Positions 3,867-60,388 of a DNA stretch of 64,000 nucleotides are shown piece by piece. Position 1 is the first letter of the stretch; every line of letters starts with the position of its first letter. The notes below the pieces were generated by a model. That model was not told where the DNA came from. It did no database searches and worked only from the letters and a program-made list of their open reading frames with translations. The stretch comes from Escherichia phage vB_EcoM_G2248: sequence record MK327932.1. The stretch is one strand, 5' to 3'. A program made the translations under genes and the position numbers.

Positions 3867-5666
3867 ATGCTAATGTTTAATAACTCCGTTAAATGGTTTA
3901 CCGGAATTGTAGAAAACAGGGAAGACCCATTAATGCTGGGGCGTGTTCAGGTTAGGATTCATGGTATACATCCCTCGCTATCCGCGCACGGTGACATTCA
4001 AGGTCTTCCAACCGAAGATCTATTATGGATTACGCCAGTACAAGATATTACAAGCGCGGCGATCTCCGGTATAGGTCAAAGCCCTACTGGTATTGTTGAA
4101 GGTTCAATGGTATTTGGTTTGGCTTTAGATGAACGTTATTTAAACTGCGTTATTCTGGGTACTATTGCCGGACAATATACAGAGAAACCACTCACTACAG
4201 AAGGTTTTTGCGACCCTTCTGGTGCATATCCTCGTTATATTGGTAATGATGTTAATATTCTTGCTCGTGGCGGTATTAACCCAGAAACCGGACAAACAAC
4301 AAAACCTGATAGTGTCTATATTCGAGATGAAAACACTGGAGTTGCAGTAAATCCAGACGACGAGCCATTAGACCAAATTCCGGTTGATGATAATCCTGAT
4401 TTTACAATAGAAAAAATGCTGCGGGGCGATGAGGGGTATCGCGAGAAATGGTATCTTGATTCAGAAGGATATCCGACAATAGGCATCGGGCATTTGATCA
4501 TTTATAAGAAAACCAGTGATCTTGGTATTATCAATAATGAACTTTCTAAGCTGGTAGGGCGTGAAGTTACAAACGGAAGACTTACCGCCGAAGAAGTTAG
4601 TAAAGTATTTGCTGACGATATAGAAAAGACTCGTCGTGATATGCGCAAACATCCACGAATTGCACCTGTCTATAATAAATGTAATGCCTCACGTCGTATG
4701 GCATTAGAAAATATGGCGTTTCAAATGGGTGTTGGTGGATTGGGTAAATTTAAGAATAGTCTTGCTGCGATGTTAGCGGAAGAATGGAAACAAGCCTATG
4801 ATGGATTACGTCAATCGGTATGGGCTAACCAAACTCCAGGACGCTCCAGCCGTGTTTCTAAAATTATTTTAACTGGTAACTTAGAATCATATGGCGTAAT
4901 TGCTCCAAAGAAAGAGGAATCAATTTCTGATGATCCGCGAGCACGTTTGAGAAATGCCCGTATTGCTGCCTATAAGACGCAGAGAGCAGAAGAAGACCCA
5001 GAAGCACCGTTTACCCCACAAGACACACGAATCATGTTTAAAGAGCCTAAGAGTTCGTATTCTGCTAGGTATCCTTATAACCATGTGTACGAGTCAGAGA
5101 GCGGTCATATTATCGAGATTGATGATACTCCTTCTCATGAGCGATATCATCGTAAACATCCTTCGGGTACATTTGAAGAAACCAGACCGGACGGAACGAG
5201 GGTAGAAAAGATTGAAGGCGATGATTATCTGATCGTTAAACAAGGCCGGAAAGTAAACGTTAAGGGTAATTTGCAAGTTGTTGTTGAAGGTGACGCGCAA
5301 GTTTATTATATGGGTAATGTGATGCAAACCGTTGATGGCAACGTCACTGAATTTATTCGTGGCAATGTTAATCAGACCGTTGAAGGTACTGCTAACATGC
5401 ATGTTGTTGGTGATGTTATCGCACAGCTTGACGCTAATTTGACGGCTAACGTCAAGGGTAATGCTGAATTAATGATCGAGGGTAACACTACCGAAACAAT
5501 TAAAGGTAACTATGATTTAACCGTTGAGGGTAATTTTAATATGACCGTCAATGGCACTAAATCAGATCAGGTTAATGGTGACTGGTCCCGTAATTGTGGT
5601 GCAAGCGTTAAAGATATTGCATCTGGTACAGTTCAAATTGATGGTAGCCGTATTGATTTTGGGTGA
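3867..5666 (+). CDS. 5: gp5 baseplate hub / tail-associated lysozyme (cell-puncturing device)
   Basis: N-terminal OB-like region; T4-lysozyme-like core EKMLRGDEGYREKWYLDSEGYPTIGIGHL; C-terminal VxGN beta-helix repeats. Confidence 0.9.
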   Translation: MLMFNNSVKWFTGIVENREDPLMLGRVQVRIHGIHPSLSAHGDIQGLPTEDLLWITPVQDITSAAISGIGQSPTGIVEGSMVFGLALDERYLNCVILGTIAGQYTEKPLTTEGFCDPSGAYPRYIGNDVNILARGGINPETGQTTKPDSVYIRDENTGVAVNPDDEPLDQIPVDDNPDFTIEKMLRGDEGYREKWYLDSEGYPTIGIGHLIIYKKTSDLGIINNELSKLVGREVTNGRLTAEEVSKVFADDIEKTRRDMRKHPRIAPVYNKCNASRRMALENMAFQMGVGGLGKFKNSLAAMLAEEWKQAYDGLRQSVWANQTPGRSSRVSKIILTGNLESYGVIAPKKEESISDDPRARLRNARIAAYKTQRAEEDPEAPFTPQDTRIMFKEPKSSYSARYPYNHVYESESGHIIEIDDTPSHERYHRKHPSGTFEETRPDGTRVEKIEGDDYLIVKQGRKVNVKGNLQVVVEGDAQVYYMGNVMQTVDGNVTEFIRGNVNQTVEGTANMHVVGDVIAQLDANLTANVKGNAELMIEGNTTETIKGNYDLTVEGNFNMTVNGTKSDQVNGDWSRNCGASVKDIASGTVQIDGSRIDFG

Positions 5667-53823: not shown

Positions 53824-54755
53824 TGTTTGATTTAAATGATTTTAACGAACAAGCCGCTAACCTTGACTTTCAGCGATCTAACTTATTCAGCGTGGCATTT
53901 GCCACCACTCCAAGTAATAAGACACAAGCGATCCTAGAAAGTATGGGTGGTGCGGTATATGATATTATACCAAATGCATTAAATGACTATTTCGGGATTA
54001 CTCGTGGTGATTATACTGACGCATTAACAAATCTTGCTGTACAGGGTGTTAGGCGTGCTGTTGATTCATCTGGTGTCAAAAAGTATCTTTTAGGTGCAAT
54101 GTCATCCCGCGTAGTTCAATCTCTTCTGGGGCAATTTGATGTTGGTACATATGCGCTTGACTGGTTCAATATGGCATATAAGACAAACGGTCTTCTGGTG
54201 TATGCTGTTAAGGTTCCAGAAAACAGATTGAATTATGAAATGGACCGTAACCACAATGCGCCAAACATTCGAATTACCGGACGTGATTTTGATCCGCTTG
54301 TATTGAGCTTTAGAATGGACTCTAGCGCATCAAACTATAGAGCAATGCAGGATTGGGTTAACTCAGTAGAAGACCCCGTTACAGGGCTTCGTGCGCTTCC
54401 TGTTGACGTTGAAGCAGATATTCAGGTCAACTTACATAACCGAATGGGAGTTCCTCACACGATCATGATGTTTAATGGTTGTGTTCCTGTTGGTGTGAGT
54501 GCACCGGAATTAAACTATGAAAACAACAACGAAATCACAACATTCGATGTTACTTTCGCATATCGTTCTATGCAAACTGGTGCTGTAGGAGAGCAAGCCG
54601 CGCGAGAATGGATTGAGGATAAGGCAATAAACGCAATAACAAACACTTTCGGCAATAATTTACTTGATAGTGGGTTATCTGCTGCTGGTAATGCTTTATC
54701 GCGTCTAAATGGCGTTGGTGGGCGTGTGGTGAATACTGTCACTAACTGGTTCTGA
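53823..54755 (+). CDS. 54: gp54 baseplate tail tube initiator
   Basis: 310 aa (T4 320 aa), synteny. Confidence 0.7.
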   Translation: MFDLNDFNEQAANLDFQRSNLFSVAFATTPSNKTQAILESMGGAVYDIIPNALNDYFGITRGDYTDALTNLAVQGVRRAVDSSGVKKYLLGAMSSRVVQSLLGQFDVGTYALDWFNMAYKTNGLLVYAVKVPENRLNYEMDRNHNAPNIRITGRDFDPLVLSFRMDSSASNYRAMQDWVNSVEDPVTGLRALPVDVEADIQVNLHNRMGVPHTIMMFNGCVPVGVSAPELNYENNNEITTFDVTFAYRSMQTGAVGEQAAREWIEDKAINAITNTFGNNLLDSGLSAAGNALSRLNGVGGRVVNTVTNWF

Positions 54756-54761
54756 TAAGCG

Positions 54762-54792
54762 AAAGGCGGGGATTATCCCCGCCTTTTTATTT
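54762..54792. terminator. terminator after gp54 (AGGCGGGGAT-t-ATCCCCGCCT + T-run)
   Basis: 10-bp perfect stem followed by TTTTTATTTT. Confidence 0.7.
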
Positions 54793-55272
54793 TGCTAAAT
54801 CATTGCAGTATTTTAGTGCCTTAGTTTGAAATTCTGCGCTGTTAAGTTCTTCATAACGGTCATAATCACCGTTTAATGCTGCCTTTCTTGCTTCTTGCTC
54901 TATCTGCATGTCAGACATGATAATACAGCGATCCCGTGCTTTCAGCTTCTCAAGTTGTATAGACTCTTCTTTCTGTTTGCGCAATTCTTCTTGACGCTTC
55001 TTTTCTTCTCGTGCTTTCTCTTCCCGCGCTTCTTTGATTGCATCCTTGAACATCTGCGTTTGTGGTGCTAAACCAACTTTAACGCGATCCACGTCTCGAC
55101 GTTCCATTTTAGAAATAAAGCATGATTCGATCTGATCATCACTTGCATATGCTGCTTTACATTCACGAAGCAAGAAAACCGGATCTGATTTAGCATTCAT
55201 CATAGCTTCCATGTTGGCACAACCAGTAAGCATGAATGCAGCCGCAAGACCAATCAGTTTAATCATTTTCAT
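54787..55272 (-). CDS. putative lipoprotein with coiled-coil region
   Basis: signal peptide plus lipobox LTGC near N-terminus; E/K-rich helical segment. Confidence 0.55.
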   Translation of the reverse strand: MKMIKLIGLAAAFMLTGCANMEAMMNAKSDPVFLLRECKAAYASDDQIESCFISKMERRDVDRVKVGLAPQTQMFKDAIKEAREEKAREEKKRQEELRKQKEESIQLEKLKARDRCIIMSDMQIEQEARKAALNGDYDRYEELNSAEFQTKALKYCNDLAK

Positions 55273-56093
55273 TTAGTCACCTCACCGAAAATTGTAAATT
55301 GTCTACGATTCTCATCGCCGAAAGATTCTACTACGTCGTTTACCTTGACGCAAGTCCCGCGCGGTAAAATTACTTCACATTCGCAAGGATTCCATGCAAT
55401 TGACCCAACAACAAAACCTTTATGATCTTTTACGTCAATTACCCATGATACATTACAAGAATGTTGCATCTTTCCGGTCATTGATTCATATCGATTCTCA
55501 CAATAAAGGCTAGTGCTGTTTGATAGCCATCCTCCAAAGATGATCGGTGTCATGCTGGTCGATACAAAGTTTTTAAAGGTAAACTCCTTATCTTCAATGA
55601 TGCGCTCTATTGTCTGAATGTCAAGATGTTGACCGCGATAAAGAGTACCGTTTAACTTTTCGGTTTTATCCATGACACAATCCATCAAATCAACAATCTC
55701 TGATATCTCATCGGTCATGTCTTCTTCCCCTAAGAGAGCACCATTTACCCATTCGTATTGTTCAGATACATAATCACAGATTGCATTATATTCTGCTGGG
55801 GTTATGTTGTTATGTTTGTAATGTTTGAATACATTATCTCCAAAGTCTTCGGAGTGTACTTCATACATCACATTAATGATTTTCTTGACAAATCCATAAT
55901 CTTGTGTCTCGCGCTCAAGGAAGCGGATAACCTTCACATAATCATCAAAGTTAATCTGATCGCTGATCATCTCAGTGATCATGTAACCATTAATACCCTC
56001 AATGTCATATGTTTCGATGTAATTATCCATACGTTCCATCATTGATTCGCGTGATTCTTCTGAAAGACGAAAATCCTGTAATTTCTTGAACAT
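55269..56093 (-). CDS. ADP-ribosyltransferase paralog (Alt/Mod-like catalytic domain)
   Basis: R-STS-ExE signature: LYRGQ, FVSTSMT, NPCECEVILPRG. Confidence 0.65.
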   Translation of the reverse strand: MFKKLQDFRLSEESRESMMERMDNYIETYDIEGINGYMITEMISDQINFDDYVKVIRFLERETQDYGFVKKIINVMYEVHSEDFGDNVFKHYKHNNITPAEYNAICDYVSEQYEWVNGALLGEEDMTDEISEIVDLMDCVMDKTEKLNGTLYRGQHLDIQTIERIIEDKEFTFKNFVSTSMTPIIFGGWLSNSTSLYCENRYESMTGKMQHSCNVSWVIDVKDHKGFVVGSIAWNPCECEVILPRGTCVKVNDVVESFGDENRRQFTIFGEVTK

Positions 56094-56171
56094 TTTAAAC
56101 CTCCCATATAACAGAAAACGGGGCTAGTATAAAACTAGTCCCCGTTTGAGTCAACCATTATTTCTTAAAAA

Positions 56172-58223
56172 TTACATTTTAAATTTATCTGGCATTGCGT
56201 CTACAGATACCAGATCAGCGATAAGCTGACGTAGAGTTGCCTTATCTGCTTTCTTACGTTCGGTTTTAGCTTCGCTAATGAAGCTGGAGAAAGACAGGTC
56301 AGAAGCAGGTTTAACAACACCTTCACGGATGAATGCATCACCGTCCGCGATCATCTCGCCAGATTCTTGTAATGCTGCCAGTTCATTTTTGTTCATAATA
56401 TGTGCCTCAATGTAATAAGTTTCTTGTGAATCCGTCGATGCCGTAGCACGAGTTACCGTATCAAAGGATAACACAACACCGCGAGGAAGTAAAATCTCGC
56501 ATTCTTTGTAAGCAAATGCTTTGTTACCTACTGGCAAGACAGGGATGTTTTCCGCGCCAGCAATGGAGAAAGCAACATTAGCGCCACCTTCACCGCGAGA
56601 GCCAGCCATAGAATCAACACCAGCAACGGCACTAGCCACGTTTGCATTCCAGCCGCCAAAAATGTTAGGTGCAAGGGAAGTGCTCACATAGTTTTTAAAG
56701 TAAAACGCTTTTTGCTTACGTGCAGTTTCCCACATTTGCGACCGGAAGTCCATACCACGATACAGAATAGTACCCGGATCAAGTTTAACGCCATAGTTGG
56801 AGAAGGCATTATCCAGTGCATCGCACATCTTGACCAATTCTTCTGGATCTGAGATGCCTTCAAACTCTTCCAGCTTACGATCAGTTAGGAAGTTGTTCAT
56901 ATTGATGTATGCTGCATCGGCATATTCGCTCAACACAAAACCTTCCGCGCCTGGCAGATCAAGATCAATATCTGCCATCATTTCACCCATGTTACTAGCA
57001 ATTGCTTCAAACATACCGGAAGCAACATTACGCAGGGCATCGGTTTTAATCTGGGTGATATGACTACGCAGCATTTCAGCTTTTACATCTGCTGGCATAG
57101 ACTGGTCTACTCGATCCATTGCCAGGGCGGTGATCTTGTTTTCGAATACTTCCTCGCTCATGATTTCTTTTAAGCGTTTGATTGATGCTGCGATAACTTC
57201 CGCAGACAACGGATCATATTGATCCTGAACTTTTACCAGTTCGCTTACTGCGTATTTTGCATCGGCTTCGCTTTCAAAAATAGTACGCATGAAACCATAG
57301 CGAGTGATAATATCACTTGTCCAGTCATTCAGAGAACGGGCGGTTGAACGTTCTAAGGCTTGACGATCAATCAGAGTATTAAACTGTTTCTTAGGTTCGG
57401 CTTCGGTGATATCTTCTTCCGGTTTAAGATTAATTTTTTCTGGATGATTCACATAGTCGCTGTTATAGGTCGCTTGAGTTTTCAGCATTTCTTCTTTAGT
57501 CAAACGAGATTTAGCCGCTACGCGTTGTTCCGCTTCCGCGTTTCGTTCTTCTTCTGACACCAGACTAGCCGCATACGCCTCATCTTTAGTCAGAGATTCA
57601 CCAGTAGCCTTAGATACCCAGCGATCACCTAAATCACTTTCTACTTTAGTGAACAAGGAATCATCAAGTTTAATCCCTTTAATCTTATCAATCGCCATAC
57701 CGCGACGCTTGACAACAACTAAAGCGATCTTTTTGCTGGTCATTACTTCCTGCTGGAATACTTCAAACTTCGGTGTACGACGCACCAAACGCTCTATAAC
57801 GCGCTTAACCAGTTCGGTCTTACCTTTCATGCGGGATACGTTAAAACGGAACATAACAGCGTCTAATTGCGCTTTACGGGCTGTTTCCATAACCACATCA
57901 AAAGCACTTGCCATAACTGCAATCGGGTTATCGCCTAGACCATTTTTAAGCTGTACAATACGACCGCTTTTGTTCATTTCGCACAGTACAACATGTGCGG
58001 TCTTGTCACCCATACGAATGATTTTAGGTGTTTTGTTGGTGAAGTTACAAAGACGGACAATCACATCTTTATCGCGTGTCTGTACTGCAAAAAGCTGTTT
58101 AGGATTCTGCTTAGGCTTTAAGCACTGTACCGGAGCAATACTGCCAAAGTTTTCTTCCTCTTCCGTCAACAGCCATTTCTCGAAAGATTCAATCATTAGA
58201 TCGTCGATTTCTAAGTTAAACAT
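56172..58223 (-). CDS. alt: Alt-like ADP-ribosyltransferase (packaged internal head protein)
   Basis: 683 aa (T4 Alt 682 aa); ILYRGM, YVSTSLAP, AYKECEILLPRG. Confidence 0.8.
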   Translation of the reverse strand: MFNLEIDDLMIESFEKWLLTEEEENFGSIAPVQCLKPKQNPKQLFAVQTRDKDVIVRLCNFTNKTPKIIRMGDKTAHVVLCEMNKSGRIVQLKNGLGDNPIAVMASAFDVVMETARKAQLDAVMFRFNVSRMKGKTELVKRVIERLVRRTPKFEVFQQEVMTSKKIALVVVKRRGMAIDKIKGIKLDDSLFTKVESDLGDRWVSKATGESLTKDEAYAASLVSEEERNAEAEQRVAAKSRLTKEEMLKTQATYNSDYVNHPEKINLKPEEDITEAEPKKQFNTLIDRQALERSTARSLNDWTSDIITRYGFMRTIFESEADAKYAVSELVKVQDQYDPLSAEVIAASIKRLKEIMSEEVFENKITALAMDRVDQSMPADVKAEMLRSHITQIKTDALRNVASGMFEAIASNMGEMMADIDLDLPGAEGFVLSEYADAAYINMNNFLTDRKLEEFEGISDPEELVKMCDALDNAFSNYGVKLDPGTILYRGMDFRSQMWETARKQKAFYFKNYVSTSLAPNIFGGWNANVASAVAGVDSMAGSRGEGGANVAFSIAGAENIPVLPVGNKAFAYKECEILLPRGVVLSFDTVTRATASTDSQETYYIEAHIMNKNELAALQESGEMIADGDAFIREGVVKPASDLSFSSFISEAKTERKKADKATLRQLIADLVSVDAMPDKFKM

Positions 58224-58261
58224 TTTATATCCTCTAGTTGATAACCTATAAACCTATATTT

Positions 58262-58290
58262 ATGAAAACGGGGCTTAACGCCCCCTTTTA
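58262..58290. terminator. terminator hairpin (GGGGC-ttaac-GCCCC) flanked by A/T runs
   Basis: serves minus-strand gene 58291-58503; T-runs on both strands. Confidence 0.6.
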
Positions 58291-58822: not shown

Positions 58823-59341
58823 TTAGTTATTTTTTAATTGTTCATCTTGCAATAATGCAATCACATGCTGGCGATGTTCTTCCGATTGAGGCACACCGAA
58901 AAAGTTTGTTTTGTAGAAATACTCTAATCGGTCTTCTCGTGTGCTCTCTTCCATCATGATCGCGGGTAGTCCGAGATTTCGGAAACGTCGCTTTTCTGCT
59001 GGCGTAAAATCACTGTAATACAACATAGAATCATCATTACCAGCAATGCTAAACTCATCATTCATGAAGGAGAATATTGCGTTTAAACGCTGTTTACCGT
59101 CCACGATTTCGATCTCATAGCGAGAGCCATCATCAATCTTAGCCATTGCGATAGCACCAACCGGAAAATCATTAATCAGGTTTTCGATAAACATACGTTT
59201 GTTTTCGGTGTCCCATACCAAAGGACGCTGATAATCTGGGTTCATGTTGATATATCCATCTTCTAACCACGCCTCATAAACAGAGATGACAAAGTTTTTA
59301 GTATTGGTATAGTAACGGCGTTTAGGCGTTAAACGGTTCAT
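58823..59341 (-). CDS. stand-alone DUF262 (ParB/Srx-like) domain protein
   Basis: PDYQRPLVWD, FIENLINDFPVGAI and EIVDGKQRLNAI match the DUF262 signature (YQR..W / DGQQRL); start at ATG ~59341 preferred. Confidence 0.6.
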   Translation of the reverse strand: MNRLTPKRRYYTNTKNFVISVYEAWLEDGYINMNPDYQRPLVWDTENKRMFIENLINDFPVGAIAMAKIDDGSRYEIEIVDGKQRLNAIFSFMNDEFSIAGNDDSMLYYSDFTPAEKRRFRNLGLPAIMMEESTREDRLEYFYKTNFFGVPQSEEHRQHVIALLQDEQLKNN

Positions 59342-59342
59342 G

Positions 59343-59675
59343 TTATAGTCTCCTGAATGGATCATCACGTAAATCAATATCTTTTAAGAACTCATCCCAT
59401 GAATGGCGGATATTGTTCTTAATTCTCCAGATAAGCGCAGGGATTGAACGCTCTCCCATCTGGAAGTATGGATCATATGATCCGTATGCCCAATATGCTA
59501 CTACAATTCCACAATCAGCGCAATAGTATTCTATTTCACTTGCTGGCGACCAAAGTCCATCAATATGATCGGTGATCTTGCTTTCGATGTTATGGCTATG
59601 ACAATCAGGGCAACGGATGCAATGACCTTGTTTATCGTAATTTGACGTTAGCGAATACTTAAACAATCTCATCAT
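59343..59675 (-). CDS. zinc-finger-like small protein (110 aa)
   Basis: CIRCPDCHSH ... CADCG Cys pairs; overlaps neighbours by 4 nt. Confidence 0.5.
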   Translation of the reverse strand: MMRLFKYSLTSNYDKQGHCIRCPDCHSHNIESKITDHIDGLWSPASEIEYYCADCGIVVAYWAYGSYDPYFQMGERSIPALIWRIKNNIRHSWDEFLKDIDLRDDPFRRL

Positions 59676-60388
59676 AGATCCTTATTTGCTTCAAATACTG
59701 CCTTTGCGAATCCTCGCGGGGTAAGTGACCTGATAGTCTTTGTTTTCGTTCCTTTCCCGCCTAGCTTAGAATGCTGTTTACTGTACCCTTTATTAATCTG
59801 CAAAGGTTTCTTTTCTGGCATTATAAAGCCTTGTCCGGTCCATAAGCAAGTCTTTTTCGGGTACATATCACGGGCGGCAATATACTCAGGAAAAGTAGGA
59901 TGTTTATCATCTTCCGGCAAATAACCGCCATATTCCCACGGATGGAACATATAATCAGGCTTACGCCACATGCTAGAGATAACGCTTACAGGATTCTCTA
60001 TCATGTAGGGAACTCCTAGCCATTCACCCAAATAAGCGGTTATTTTAGCTGCCCTTACATCATGAACTTGAATCAATGGTCCTTGCTCTCGTTTCTTTCG
60101 TTCAAAGTGTGCAGCGCCACTAACAGCTAAATTGGTGCACGGTGGGAATGCAAAGATAATATCCGGTTTCCCCCATTCAAGGTCCATTGCTCTTTCCAGC
60201 CAGTTCAAATCAATCCATGTGTTTACATAGGTAATGTTTGGATGTTCAAATCGGGTATTATACTTTTTGTATGTACCGTGGTCGCCATCGTCAGCATTAA
60301 AGCAGATCACCTTATGACCTGCTTTAGCCCATTCTAACCCCATTATCCCCGATCCGTCAAAGTTGCAGAATATTAATTTTTGTTTCAC
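59672..60388 (-). CDS. minimal C5-methyltransferase-like protein (238 aa; motifs I, IV, VI, no obvious target-recognition domain)
   Basis: FCNFDGSGIMGLEWAKAG (FxGxG), IIFAFPPCTNLAVSG (PC catalytic Cys), YMIENPVSV (ENV-like); GTG start overlapping upstream stop. Confidence 0.5.
   Translation of the reverse strand: MKQKLIFCNFDGSGIMGLEWAKAGHKVICFNADDGDHGTYKKYNTRFEHPNITYVNTWIDLNWLERAMDLEWGKPDIIFAFPPCTNLAVSGAAHFERKKREQGPLIQVHDVRAAKITAYLGEWLGVPYMIENPVSVISSMWRKPDYMFHPWEYGGYLPEDDKHPTFPEYIAARDMYPKKTCLWTGQGFIMPEKKPLQINKGYSKQHSKLGGKGTKTKTIRSLTPRGFAKAVFEANKDL

Follow-up and report, generated by a model that had tools for sequence, protein, structure and literature searches.

An Old Alt-Family Paralog Beside alt in Krischvirus: A Short, Catalytic-Module ADP-Ribosyltransferase with a Putative Early Promoter of Its Own

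Introduction

Why does a T4-like phage carry a second, short ADP-ribosyltransferase (ART) gene beside alt, and is this gene a recent copy, a decaying remnant, a displaced gene or an enzyme with a role of its own? This question is raised by a 64,000-nucleotide stretch of Escherichia phage vB_EcoM_G2248 (sequence record MK327932.1; hereafter, the window), in which alt (56172..58223, 683 aa) and a short ART gene (55269..56093, 274 aa) are consecutive open reading frames (ORFs), both on the minus strand, separated by a spacer of 78 nt. The window is of the Krischvirus type (RB49/Phi1/JSE group, ~99% identical), and the 3.9-kb region containing the pair showed 98.5-98.9% identity to 58 phage records, all of RB49/Phi1/JSE/GEC-3S type (genus Krischvirus). 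The 683-aa protein is 99.6% identical to RB49 Alt, and the 274-aa protein is 100% identical to RB49p183 (= RB49ORF183c), which the RB49 record, annotated in 2003, labels "ADP-ribosyltransferase" and notes as similar to the C-terminal part of T4 Alt. RB49ORF183c, 44RRORF188c and T4 alt.-1/alt.-2 were also interpreted as paralogs that arose by duplication of alt (Nolan et al. 2006, PMC1524935). Since the pair was annotated in RB49 and named as an alt paralog in 2006, it is real but already known in databases and in the literature, and ordinary in that sense; with a PHROG family of its own also in existence, it has little weight as a discovery. Its value is that of an experimental handle, offering a clean contrast with the three ARTs of T4. 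Sequence comparison indicates that the short ART is a functional, stably retained Alt-family paralog, apparently reduced to the catalytic module.

Domain, Fold and Constraint of the Short ART

The short ART gene and its parts were delimited as follows:

55269..56093, minus strand: short Alt-family ART, 274 aa (= RB49p183/RB49ORF183c; phrog_15144), assigned by PF03496, PHROG and identity to RB49
55296..55850, minus strand: catalytic domain (aa 82-266), assigned by the PF03496 match and a C3/Vis/iota-like fold
55635-55637, 55554-55562 and 55374-55382, minus strand: catalytic residues R153, S178-T-S180 and E238-C-E240, respectively
55851..56093, minus strand: family-specific N-terminal helical extension (aa 1-81), with predicted helices and no significant Alt match

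The original prediction, made from the sequence alone, held that the 274-aa protein repeats the R/STS/ExE triad of Alt behind a different N-terminal region. The triad was found in the motifs LYRGQ (R153), FVSTSMT (S178-T-S180) and NPCECEVILPRG (E238-C-E240), with the catalytic residues present on alignment. PF03496 matched residues 82-266 with 59.3 bits (E 4.3e-16), the gathering cut-off of this family being 23.4 bits, and phrog_15144, 'ADP-ribosyltransferase', matched the protein at positions 1-274 of 274 (E 2.6e-198). The Alt family phrog_802 was also matched (E 3e-45), at profile positions 330-602 only, and searches of NCBIfam and PADLOC returned no match for either ART. The start codon of the short gene, an ATG, is preceded by the Shine-Dalgarno (SD) sequence GGGAGG.

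An AlphaFold2 model of the short ART (predicted local distance difference test, pLDDT, 84.9; predicted template modelling score, pTM, 0.84) placed a helical region N-terminal to the ART beta core, with helices predicted at residues 12-28, 36-41, 49-63 and 66-91. The comparison of this model with the PDB by Foldseek retrieved Vis (4xzk, E 4.7e-11), C3bot2 (1r45), Certhrax, CDTa and iota Ia (1giq), all with probability 1.0, and a PDB sequence search with the short ART returned the Vis/C3/iota-type group again and no solved Alt or Mod structure. The short ART is thus like the PF03496 enzymes Vis, C3bot, Certhrax, CDTa, iota Ia and VIP2 in fold (target-normalised TM 0.6-0.67) and in catalytic motifs, but it is only 13-20% identical to the bacterial toxin ARTs and is a phage intracellular enzyme without a secretion or translocation component. 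Its E-x-E motif occurs as in the arginine-specific iota, C2, VIP2 and Vis, and this motif indicates arginine specificity by analogy with iota, C2, VIP2, Alt and Mod. Because the E-x-E motif stands in a C3/VIP2-type R-S-E domain, the short ART is probably an arginine-specific mono-ADP-ribosyltransferase that uses NAD+.

The R, S-T-S and E-x-E motifs were kept in all eight members of the short-ART family examined, down to 33% identity. The ratio of nonsynonymous to synonymous substitution rates (dN/dS) between the window gene and an 83%-identical relative was 0.098, and the short ART is under purifying selection.

Relationship of the Short ART to Alt

The likeness between the two neighbouring proteins is confined to the catalytic module. 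The short ART aligned with the window Alt over 109 aa (37% identity, E 1e-16) and with T4 Alt over residues 414-594 of the latter (31% identity, E 9e-20), and a profile of the short family aligned to residues ~340-609 only of Krischvirus Alt. The N-terminal ~330 aa of Alt and its C-terminal tail of ~75 aa are absent from the short ART, whose family stops right after the ART core. With T4 Alt, a head-packaged NAD+:arginine mono-ART of phrog_802 and of the Alt/VIP2 clade, the 274-aa protein has in common the catalytic-domain family and the R/S-T-S/E-x-E motifs, but it presents a helical leader of ~80 aa of its own, and its gene differs from T4 alt in having a predicted sigma70-type instead of a late-type promoter and in being apparently operonic with a lipoprotein gene.

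The first ~60 residues of the short ART showed no detectable homology to Alt, so that the different N-terminal region of the original prediction holds for the leading helices. A comparison of the N-terminal 100 aa with the middle region of Alt by hhalign was rejected as a sign of homology, the match being limited to residues 63-97 against Alt 393-429 (E 0.028, probability 1.8%). Longer collinear PHROG and HMM alignments to Alt do not support N-terminal homology either, because they are carried by the ART core.

Homologs of the short ART of 264-288 aa were found at 83, 63, 48, 45, 44 and 33% identity (P0002-P0006, P0011), and a search of representative sequences added a further family member of 271 aa, 46% identical over the matched stretch (P0009). 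The gene order alt, short ART, ORF of 159-170 aa and converging gene 54 was observed in every case with enough contig (L011, L016-L019), one contig (L015) ending at the short ART. This synteny includes two ~168-kb T4-like genomes distinct from Krischvirus (L019, L020), a separate lineage in which the short ART module stands at 33% identity.

The original prediction had suggested local duplication as the origin of the pair. A neighbor-joining (NJ) distance tree was built from 174 ART-core columns of 64 sequences, with weak deep resolution. The Krischvirus-type Alt clade was recovered with a bootstrap of 89 and the short clade with 63, and both as sisters in 0/100 replicates. The mean ART-core identity of the short family was 0.30 to Krischvirus Alt, 0.31 to T4-type Alt and 0.33 to Alt2-type proteins. 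At the level of these sequences, the tree rules out the short clade as the sister of Krischvirus Alt, and it does not give the precise placement of this clade. As the short clade was never the sister of Krischvirus Alt and is about equally distant from all Alt clades, a recent local duplication of Krischvirus alt was rejected, and the short ART appears to be an old paralog that co-diverged with alt; the presence of the module in the separate ~168-kb lineage is a further point against a recent event.

Nucleotide identity to a close relative (L018) varied along window positions 54400-58000 in a mosaic fashion: alt reached 0.87-1.0 and gene 54 0.82-0.93, the short ART fell to 0.72-0.78 over its first half and rose again to 0.86-0.91 over its catalytic half, and the lipoprotein gene was down at ~0.52. 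The N-terminal part is the most divergent stretch of the short ART gene between close relatives. This mosaic suggests recombination or diversifying selection on the N-terminal half of the short ART and on the lipoprotein gene.

Promoter and Hairpin in the Spacer

Two overlapping elements were identified in the spacer between alt and the short ART:

56126..56154, minus strand: sigma70-type (early) promoter for the short ART, TTGACT-17-TATACT, a scan match of 10/12
56116..56147, minus strand: terminator-like hairpin (AAACGGGG-A-CUAGU / ACUAGCCCCGUUU, then UCUGUU), from RNA folding and conservation

The -10 hexamer of the promoter is located in the loop and the 3' arm of the hairpin. The hairpin has a minimum free energy of -20.6 kcal/mol (z -3.8), none of 200 shuffled sequences folding as well, and it is followed by a U-rich tract; the stem is bulged and the U-tract interrupted. 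The whole element, namely the -35 hexamer, the 17-nt spacing, the -10 hexamer and the hairpin, was kept in six lineages with short ARTs down to ~44% identity, in the form TTGAC(A/T)-17-TATACT inside a covarying hairpin. The stem variants (CTAG:CTAG, TCAG:CTGA, ACAG:CTGT) left 89% of cells paired, with three pairs changed on both sides, a covariation score reached by 3 of 500 shuffles. In the lineage whose short ART is 33% identical (L019), a promoter, TTGACA-17-TAGAAT, was kept with a different hairpin, which argues that the spacer promoter itself is under selection.

The annotators of GEC-3S independently marked a promoter in the spacer, and the RB49 early promoter Pe:112388 was predicted at the same site with a score of 9.3 (Nolan et al. 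2006, PMC1524935). Read-through transcripts from alt hold the whole hairpin, whereas those starting at the spacer promoter are without the 5' arm of the stem and, for this reason, should not terminate at the hairpin.

Full-Length Alt and Its Upstream Signals

The neighbouring long gene was assigned the following features:

56172..58223, minus strand: alt, full-length Alt ortholog, 683 aa, assigned by phrog_802, alignment to T4 Alt and synteny with gene 54
57234..58223, minus strand: Alt N-terminal region (~aa 1-330), with ~30 invariant columns, P31-E269, in eight Alt proteins
56394..56951, minus strand: Alt ART catalytic domain (aa 425-610; R489, S514-T-S516, E574-C-E576), from PF03496
56175..56393, minus strand: Alt C-terminal tail (aa 611-683, ending in MPDKFKM), with invariant E614...K680, F681
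58270..58284, minus strand: terminator-like hairpin (GGGGCGTTAAGCCCC + GTTTTCAT) between an upstream 70-aa early ORF and alt, from a sequence scan
58257..58264, minus strand: late-promoter-like motif CATAAATA, ~33 nt before the alt ATG, a 7/8 match to the T4 late consensus

The identification of the 683-aa protein as Alt, with its R, STS and ExE motifs, was confirmed. It matched phrog_802, 'Alt-like RNA polymerase ADP-ribosyltransferase', at profile positions 2-674 of 674 (E 5.9e-180), and PF03496 (ADPrib_exo_Tox) at residues 425-610 (37.7 bits, E 1.8e-9), and it was 27% identical to T4 Alt across residues 16-680 (E 1.6e-57). The motifs are LYRGM (R489), YVSTS (S514-T-S516) and KECEILLPRG (E574-C-E576). 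The gene keeps the syntenic position of alt next to gene 54, between it and the gene 30 side, and the protein resembles T4 Alt in length and in gene-54 neighbourhood, with a terminator and a late-promoter-like motif in similar positions upstream; the 683-aa gene is an ordinary Alt ortholog.

When eight full-length Alt sequences representing several genera, including those of T4, T2 and JS98, were aligned, the R, S-T-S and E-x-E motifs were invariant and two conserved regions besides the ART core were revealed, an N-terminal one (~30 invariant columns, P31 to E269) and the C-terminal tail (E614 to F681). In precomputed annotations of relatives, PF26846 (Tevenvirinae_ADPRT) matched the Alt N-terminal region. 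The Krischvirus end, MPDKFKM, resembles those of T2 Alt2 (MSKKFKM) and JS98 AltB (LPNKFKM) and differs from the KFVQG/KFIQG ends found in T4 Alt (KFVQG), T2 Alt1 and JS98 AltA; despite this KFKM-type end, the NJ tree placed the ART core of Krischvirus Alt closer to the T4-type clade.

Upstream of alt, as in T4, a terminator precedes a late-promoter-like (T/C/A)ATAAATA motif. A hairpin at the position equivalent to 58270-58284 was also present in T4, T2, JS98 and L011, the GEC-3S annotators mark a terminator there, and one was predicted at the equivalent RB49 site, 114488-114504, 'alt<--RB49ORF185c' (Nolan et al. 2006, PMC1524935). The motif CATAAATA agrees with the T4 late consensus TATAAATA at 7 of 8 positions, the mismatch being a C at -13, a position reported to be poorly conserved outside T4 (PMC1524935). 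At the same site, T4 and T2 carry the canonical TATAAATA, JS98 carries CATAAATA, L011 AATAAATA and L019 TCTAAATA. T4 alt is late by experiment, and T4 ModA and ModB are early proteins (PMC9697503).

A late-promoter matrix was built from 16 RB49 late promoters (sites of Nolan et al. 2006). Pl:112065, the top-scoring RB49 late promoter of that study (15.9), lies inside ORF183c (PMC1524935), at RB49 112023-112065, which corresponds to window ~55803-55845 on the minus strand. It looks erroneous because its core, TACAAACA, obtained -2.6 bits on the matrix of the other 16 sites, and it was treated as spurious.

Second alt Copies and Mod Genes in Other Phages

The original prediction set the second ART beside alt against T4, whose other ARTs are encoded elsewhere. 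In other phages, however, such a gene is common, and this very pair has been known since 2003/2006. T2 (gp210/gp211) and JS98 (alta/altb) carry two tandem full-length alt genes, the second of T2 starting 3 nt after alt1 and being devoid of promoter or terminator signals of its own. T4 has retained, just 3' of alt, a remnant of a T2-type second Alt (alt.-1/alt.-2; L006 ~4815-5165): its initial 116 codons, frameshifted near codon 56, share 96% identity with T2 gp211, and the ART domain has been deleted. In a Tequatrovirus metagenome contig (L013 5183-7248), the second alt is split into a 273-aa ORF corresponding to the Alt N-terminal domain (PF26846) and a 415-aa ORF (P0007) with the ART domain and the C-terminal tail, overlapping by 4 nt, which could be a decay intermediate or a two-piece variant. 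Since a second Alt-family gene beside alt is common and T4 holds a remnant of one, the single alt of T4 is a derived state.

The second Alt-family genes of T2 (gp210/gp211), JS98 (alta/altb), 44RR (ORF187c) and T4 (the alt.-1/alt.-2 remnants) lie between alt and gene 54, as does the short ART, indicating that the alt locus has repeatedly held more than one ART. Unlike the short ART, the second copies of T2, JS98 and 44RR are full length (685-708 aa) and keep the N-terminal domain and the C-terminal tail; and whereas the second copy of T2 abuts alt without promoter or terminator, the Krischvirus gene is catalytic-only, forms a deep separate clade and has its own predicted signals.

As to the Mod enzymes, which the original prediction placed elsewhere in the T4 genome, the same arrangement was found in RB49, although with a single Mod-type gene. 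A tblastn search of the complete RB49 genome with these ARTs returned exactly three ART loci, alt, p183 and p014, so that the number of ARTs equals that of T4 (Alt, ModA and ModB). RB49 p014 (L007 8917-9420) codes for a 167-aa Mod-type ART next to srd, syntenic with T4 modA/modB, and matched T4 ModB (E 1.5e-7) and not ModA. The Mod family phrog_832 was matched by T4 ModA (E 1.7e-33), T4 ModB (E 1.1e-41) and RB49p014 (E 1e-20). The short ART, encoded ~100 kb from the RB49 Mod locus, showed no significant similarity by BLASTP to T4 ModA (E 0.41) or ModB (E 1.2) and no match to phrog_832.

Proposed Expression and Function

The reading that we favour, with a probability of roughly 0.6, is that the short ART is an Alt-type arginine ART produced early in infection, left out of the virion and directed at a target of its own. 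The strengths given to this and the following explanations are separate judgements on overlapping claims and not shares of a whole. Alt would probably follow the T4 pattern of late transcription, head packaging and injection together with the DNA, and the spacer hairpin would terminate its transcript. The sigma70-type promoter within the hairpin would then start a new transcript that, without the 5' arm, would escape termination and cover the short ART and the overlapping lipoprotein gene as far as a bidirectional terminator. From such a separate promoter-to-terminator unit, the short ART would most likely be made de novo early in infection, like T4 ModA/ModB, and not be delivered by the virion; it would modify a host target other than that of Alt. 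A distinct target specificity, suggested as one option in the original prediction, is plausible. We infer early timing, non-packaging, arginine specificity and a distinct target as the most likely properties of this enzyme.

Like T4 ModA/ModB (phrog_832), the short ART is a small standalone R-S-E enzyme, predicted to be early and unpackaged as they are, and its role is possibly analogous; it differs from them in having no detectable sequence similarity, in PHROG family and in locus, the Mod genes lying next to srd. The three-ART set of RB49 would be unlike that of T4, comprising a packaged Alt, an Alt-derived catalytic-only enzyme with an early-type promoter and a single Mod. The substrates of Alt and the short ART, if compared, would reveal how regions beyond the ART core determine the choice of target, and whether T4-like phages acquired early ARTs more than once.

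Several points weigh against an early, non-packaged enzyme. First, Pe:112388 is weak on the RB49 early-promoter model (9.3 vs 35-39 for its neighbours), the overlapping hairpin, and not promoter function, could be behind part of the promoter conservation, and read-through from alt into the short ART late in infection is possible. Second, the loss of the Alt N- and C-terminal regions is no proof of non-packaging, because the packaging determinants of Alt are undefined in the literature examined; and (L/I)-x-E motifs, which have the form of the prohead-protease cleavage site, occur in the short ART N-terminus. Third, the late-type signal of alt is itself imperfect: CATAAATA scored <8 bits on the 16-site matrix, because a C at -13 did not occur in the training set, and its site is not in the RB49 late-promoter list of Nolan et al. 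2006 (PMC1524935). Finally, a literature search for Krischvirus expression or virion-proteome data found none, and no target of the short ART was reported in the literature searched.

A broader reading, which is tentative, treats the short ART and the lipoprotein as a conserved, early-transcribed, recombining cassette older than Krischvirus, in which an Alt module would have been re-tooled, via its hypervariable N-terminal half of ~80-165 residues, for another host target. Candidates for this target are a component of a defence or toxin-antitoxin system, in the way that T4 Alt acts on MazF, and RNA polymerase alpha, with the short ART standing in for the missing ModA. If this is true, Mod-like early ARTs would have originated a further time, independently and from Alt.

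It is unlikely, but deserves weighing, that the short ART is instead a second virion enzyme, expressed by late read-through from alt, packaged, injected and acting with Alt in the first seconds of infection, as is presumably the case for the second, full-length Alt of T2 and of JS98. The gene is located directly downstream of alt on the same strand, and the bulged stem and interrupted U-tract of the spacer terminator make some read-through plausible; moreover, head packaging is typical of ARTs with such a genomic context, as argued by Iyer et al. (PMC9503650). However, all full-length Alt proteins, among them the tandem copies of T2 and JS98, keep an N-terminal domain and a C-terminal tail, neither of which the short ART has. 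Its gene is preceded by a conserved sigma70 promoter in seven lineages, and its predicted co-transcription and coupling are with an exported lipoprotein and not with a head component. The N-terminus MFKKLQDFRLSE loosely resembles the leader MKTYQEFIAE of the T4 internal protein IpII, but the remaining RB49 ORFs are devoid of a comparable leader and other members of the short family do not share it; a capsid-targeting leader was rejected, the likeness being probably a coincidence.

More doubtful still is the proposal, a special case of the favoured early and non-packaged enzyme, that the short ART replaces ModA and completes the modification of RNA polymerase, so that both alpha subunits become ADP-ribosylated at Arg265 and sigma70/UP-element promoters are shut down. 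RB49 has three ARTs like T4 and its sole Mod matches ModB and not ModA, the predicted early expression fits the timing of ModA, and RB49 is without MotA and middle promoters, so that its early-to-late switch is organised differently (PMC1524935). However, the proposal draws on gene counts only, the short ART and ModA showing no similarity in sequence. As ModA and ModB are paralogs that share a PHROG family, either role could be filled by the single RB49 Mod. In addition, the hypervariable N-terminal half and the linkage with a fast-evolving lipoprotein suggest a conflict or accessory function instead of a core transcription switch.

Second alt copies do decay elsewhere, as the 116 frameshifted codons of T4 and the split Tequatrovirus gene (273 + 415 aa) illustrate, but it is very improbable that here, too, a tandem alt duplication left only a functionless relic comparable to T4 alt.-1/alt.-2, and the pseudogene explanation is effectively refuted by the dN/dS of 0.098, by a length of 264-288 aa with catalytic residues intact down to 33% identity, and by a conserved promoter of its own, a strong SD sequence and a confidently predicted fold. 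Finally, a ModA/ModB ortholog moved beside alt was rejected as next to impossible: although 274 aa is nearer Mod (200-207 aa) than Alt and the R-S-E motif class is common to both, the short ART resembles neither ModA nor ModB and belongs by its matches to the Alt family and not to phrog_832, while RB49 has its own Mod at the syntenic site next to srd.

The Lipoprotein Gene and Neighbouring Features

The predicted transcription unit is completed by two further features:

54787..55272, minus strand: lipoprotein gene, 161 aa (phrog_16112), whose ATG overlaps the short ART stop (ATGA) and whose product has a lipobox
54761..54787, no strand assigned: bidirectional terminator between the lipoprotein gene and converging gene 54, with a 12-bp stem including 7 GC pairs

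The lipoprotein presents the lipobox LTGC at residues 15-18, four further conserved Cys and a charged, coiled-coil-like centre. Its gene was found directly 3' of the short ART, overlapping or abutting the stop codon, in all six lineages with downstream sequence, and is predicted to be translationally coupled to the short ART. Homologs of 159-170 aa are located at L011 6828-7307, L016 2683-3186, L017 1333-1821, L018 2712-3224 and L019 6792-7301, the last of which matched phrog_16112 (E 1.7e-6). Between the window and L018, the lipoprotein is 32.5% identical at the amino acid level where alt is 98% identical, indicating very fast evolution. A faint PHROG match to the Cor superinfection-exclusion lipoprotein (E 0.0078) was observed, and the protein may be an exclusion or receptor-masking protein. 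The terminator between the two converging genes is also present in the GEC-3S annotation and was listed for RB49 at 110985-111003 as '54-><-RB49ORF182c' (Nolan et al. 2006, PMC1524935).

In the early region upstream of alt, a 238-aa ORF (59672-60388, minus strand) is a DNA methyltransferase in the RB49 annotation. A 184-aa ORF (58823-59377, minus strand) contains the motif 'DYQRPLVWD', which we take to recall DUF262/ParB-like nuclease domains. Between 58500 and 61700, several strong sigma70-type promoters (TTGACA-17-TATAAT/CATAAT) were observed before small ORFs.

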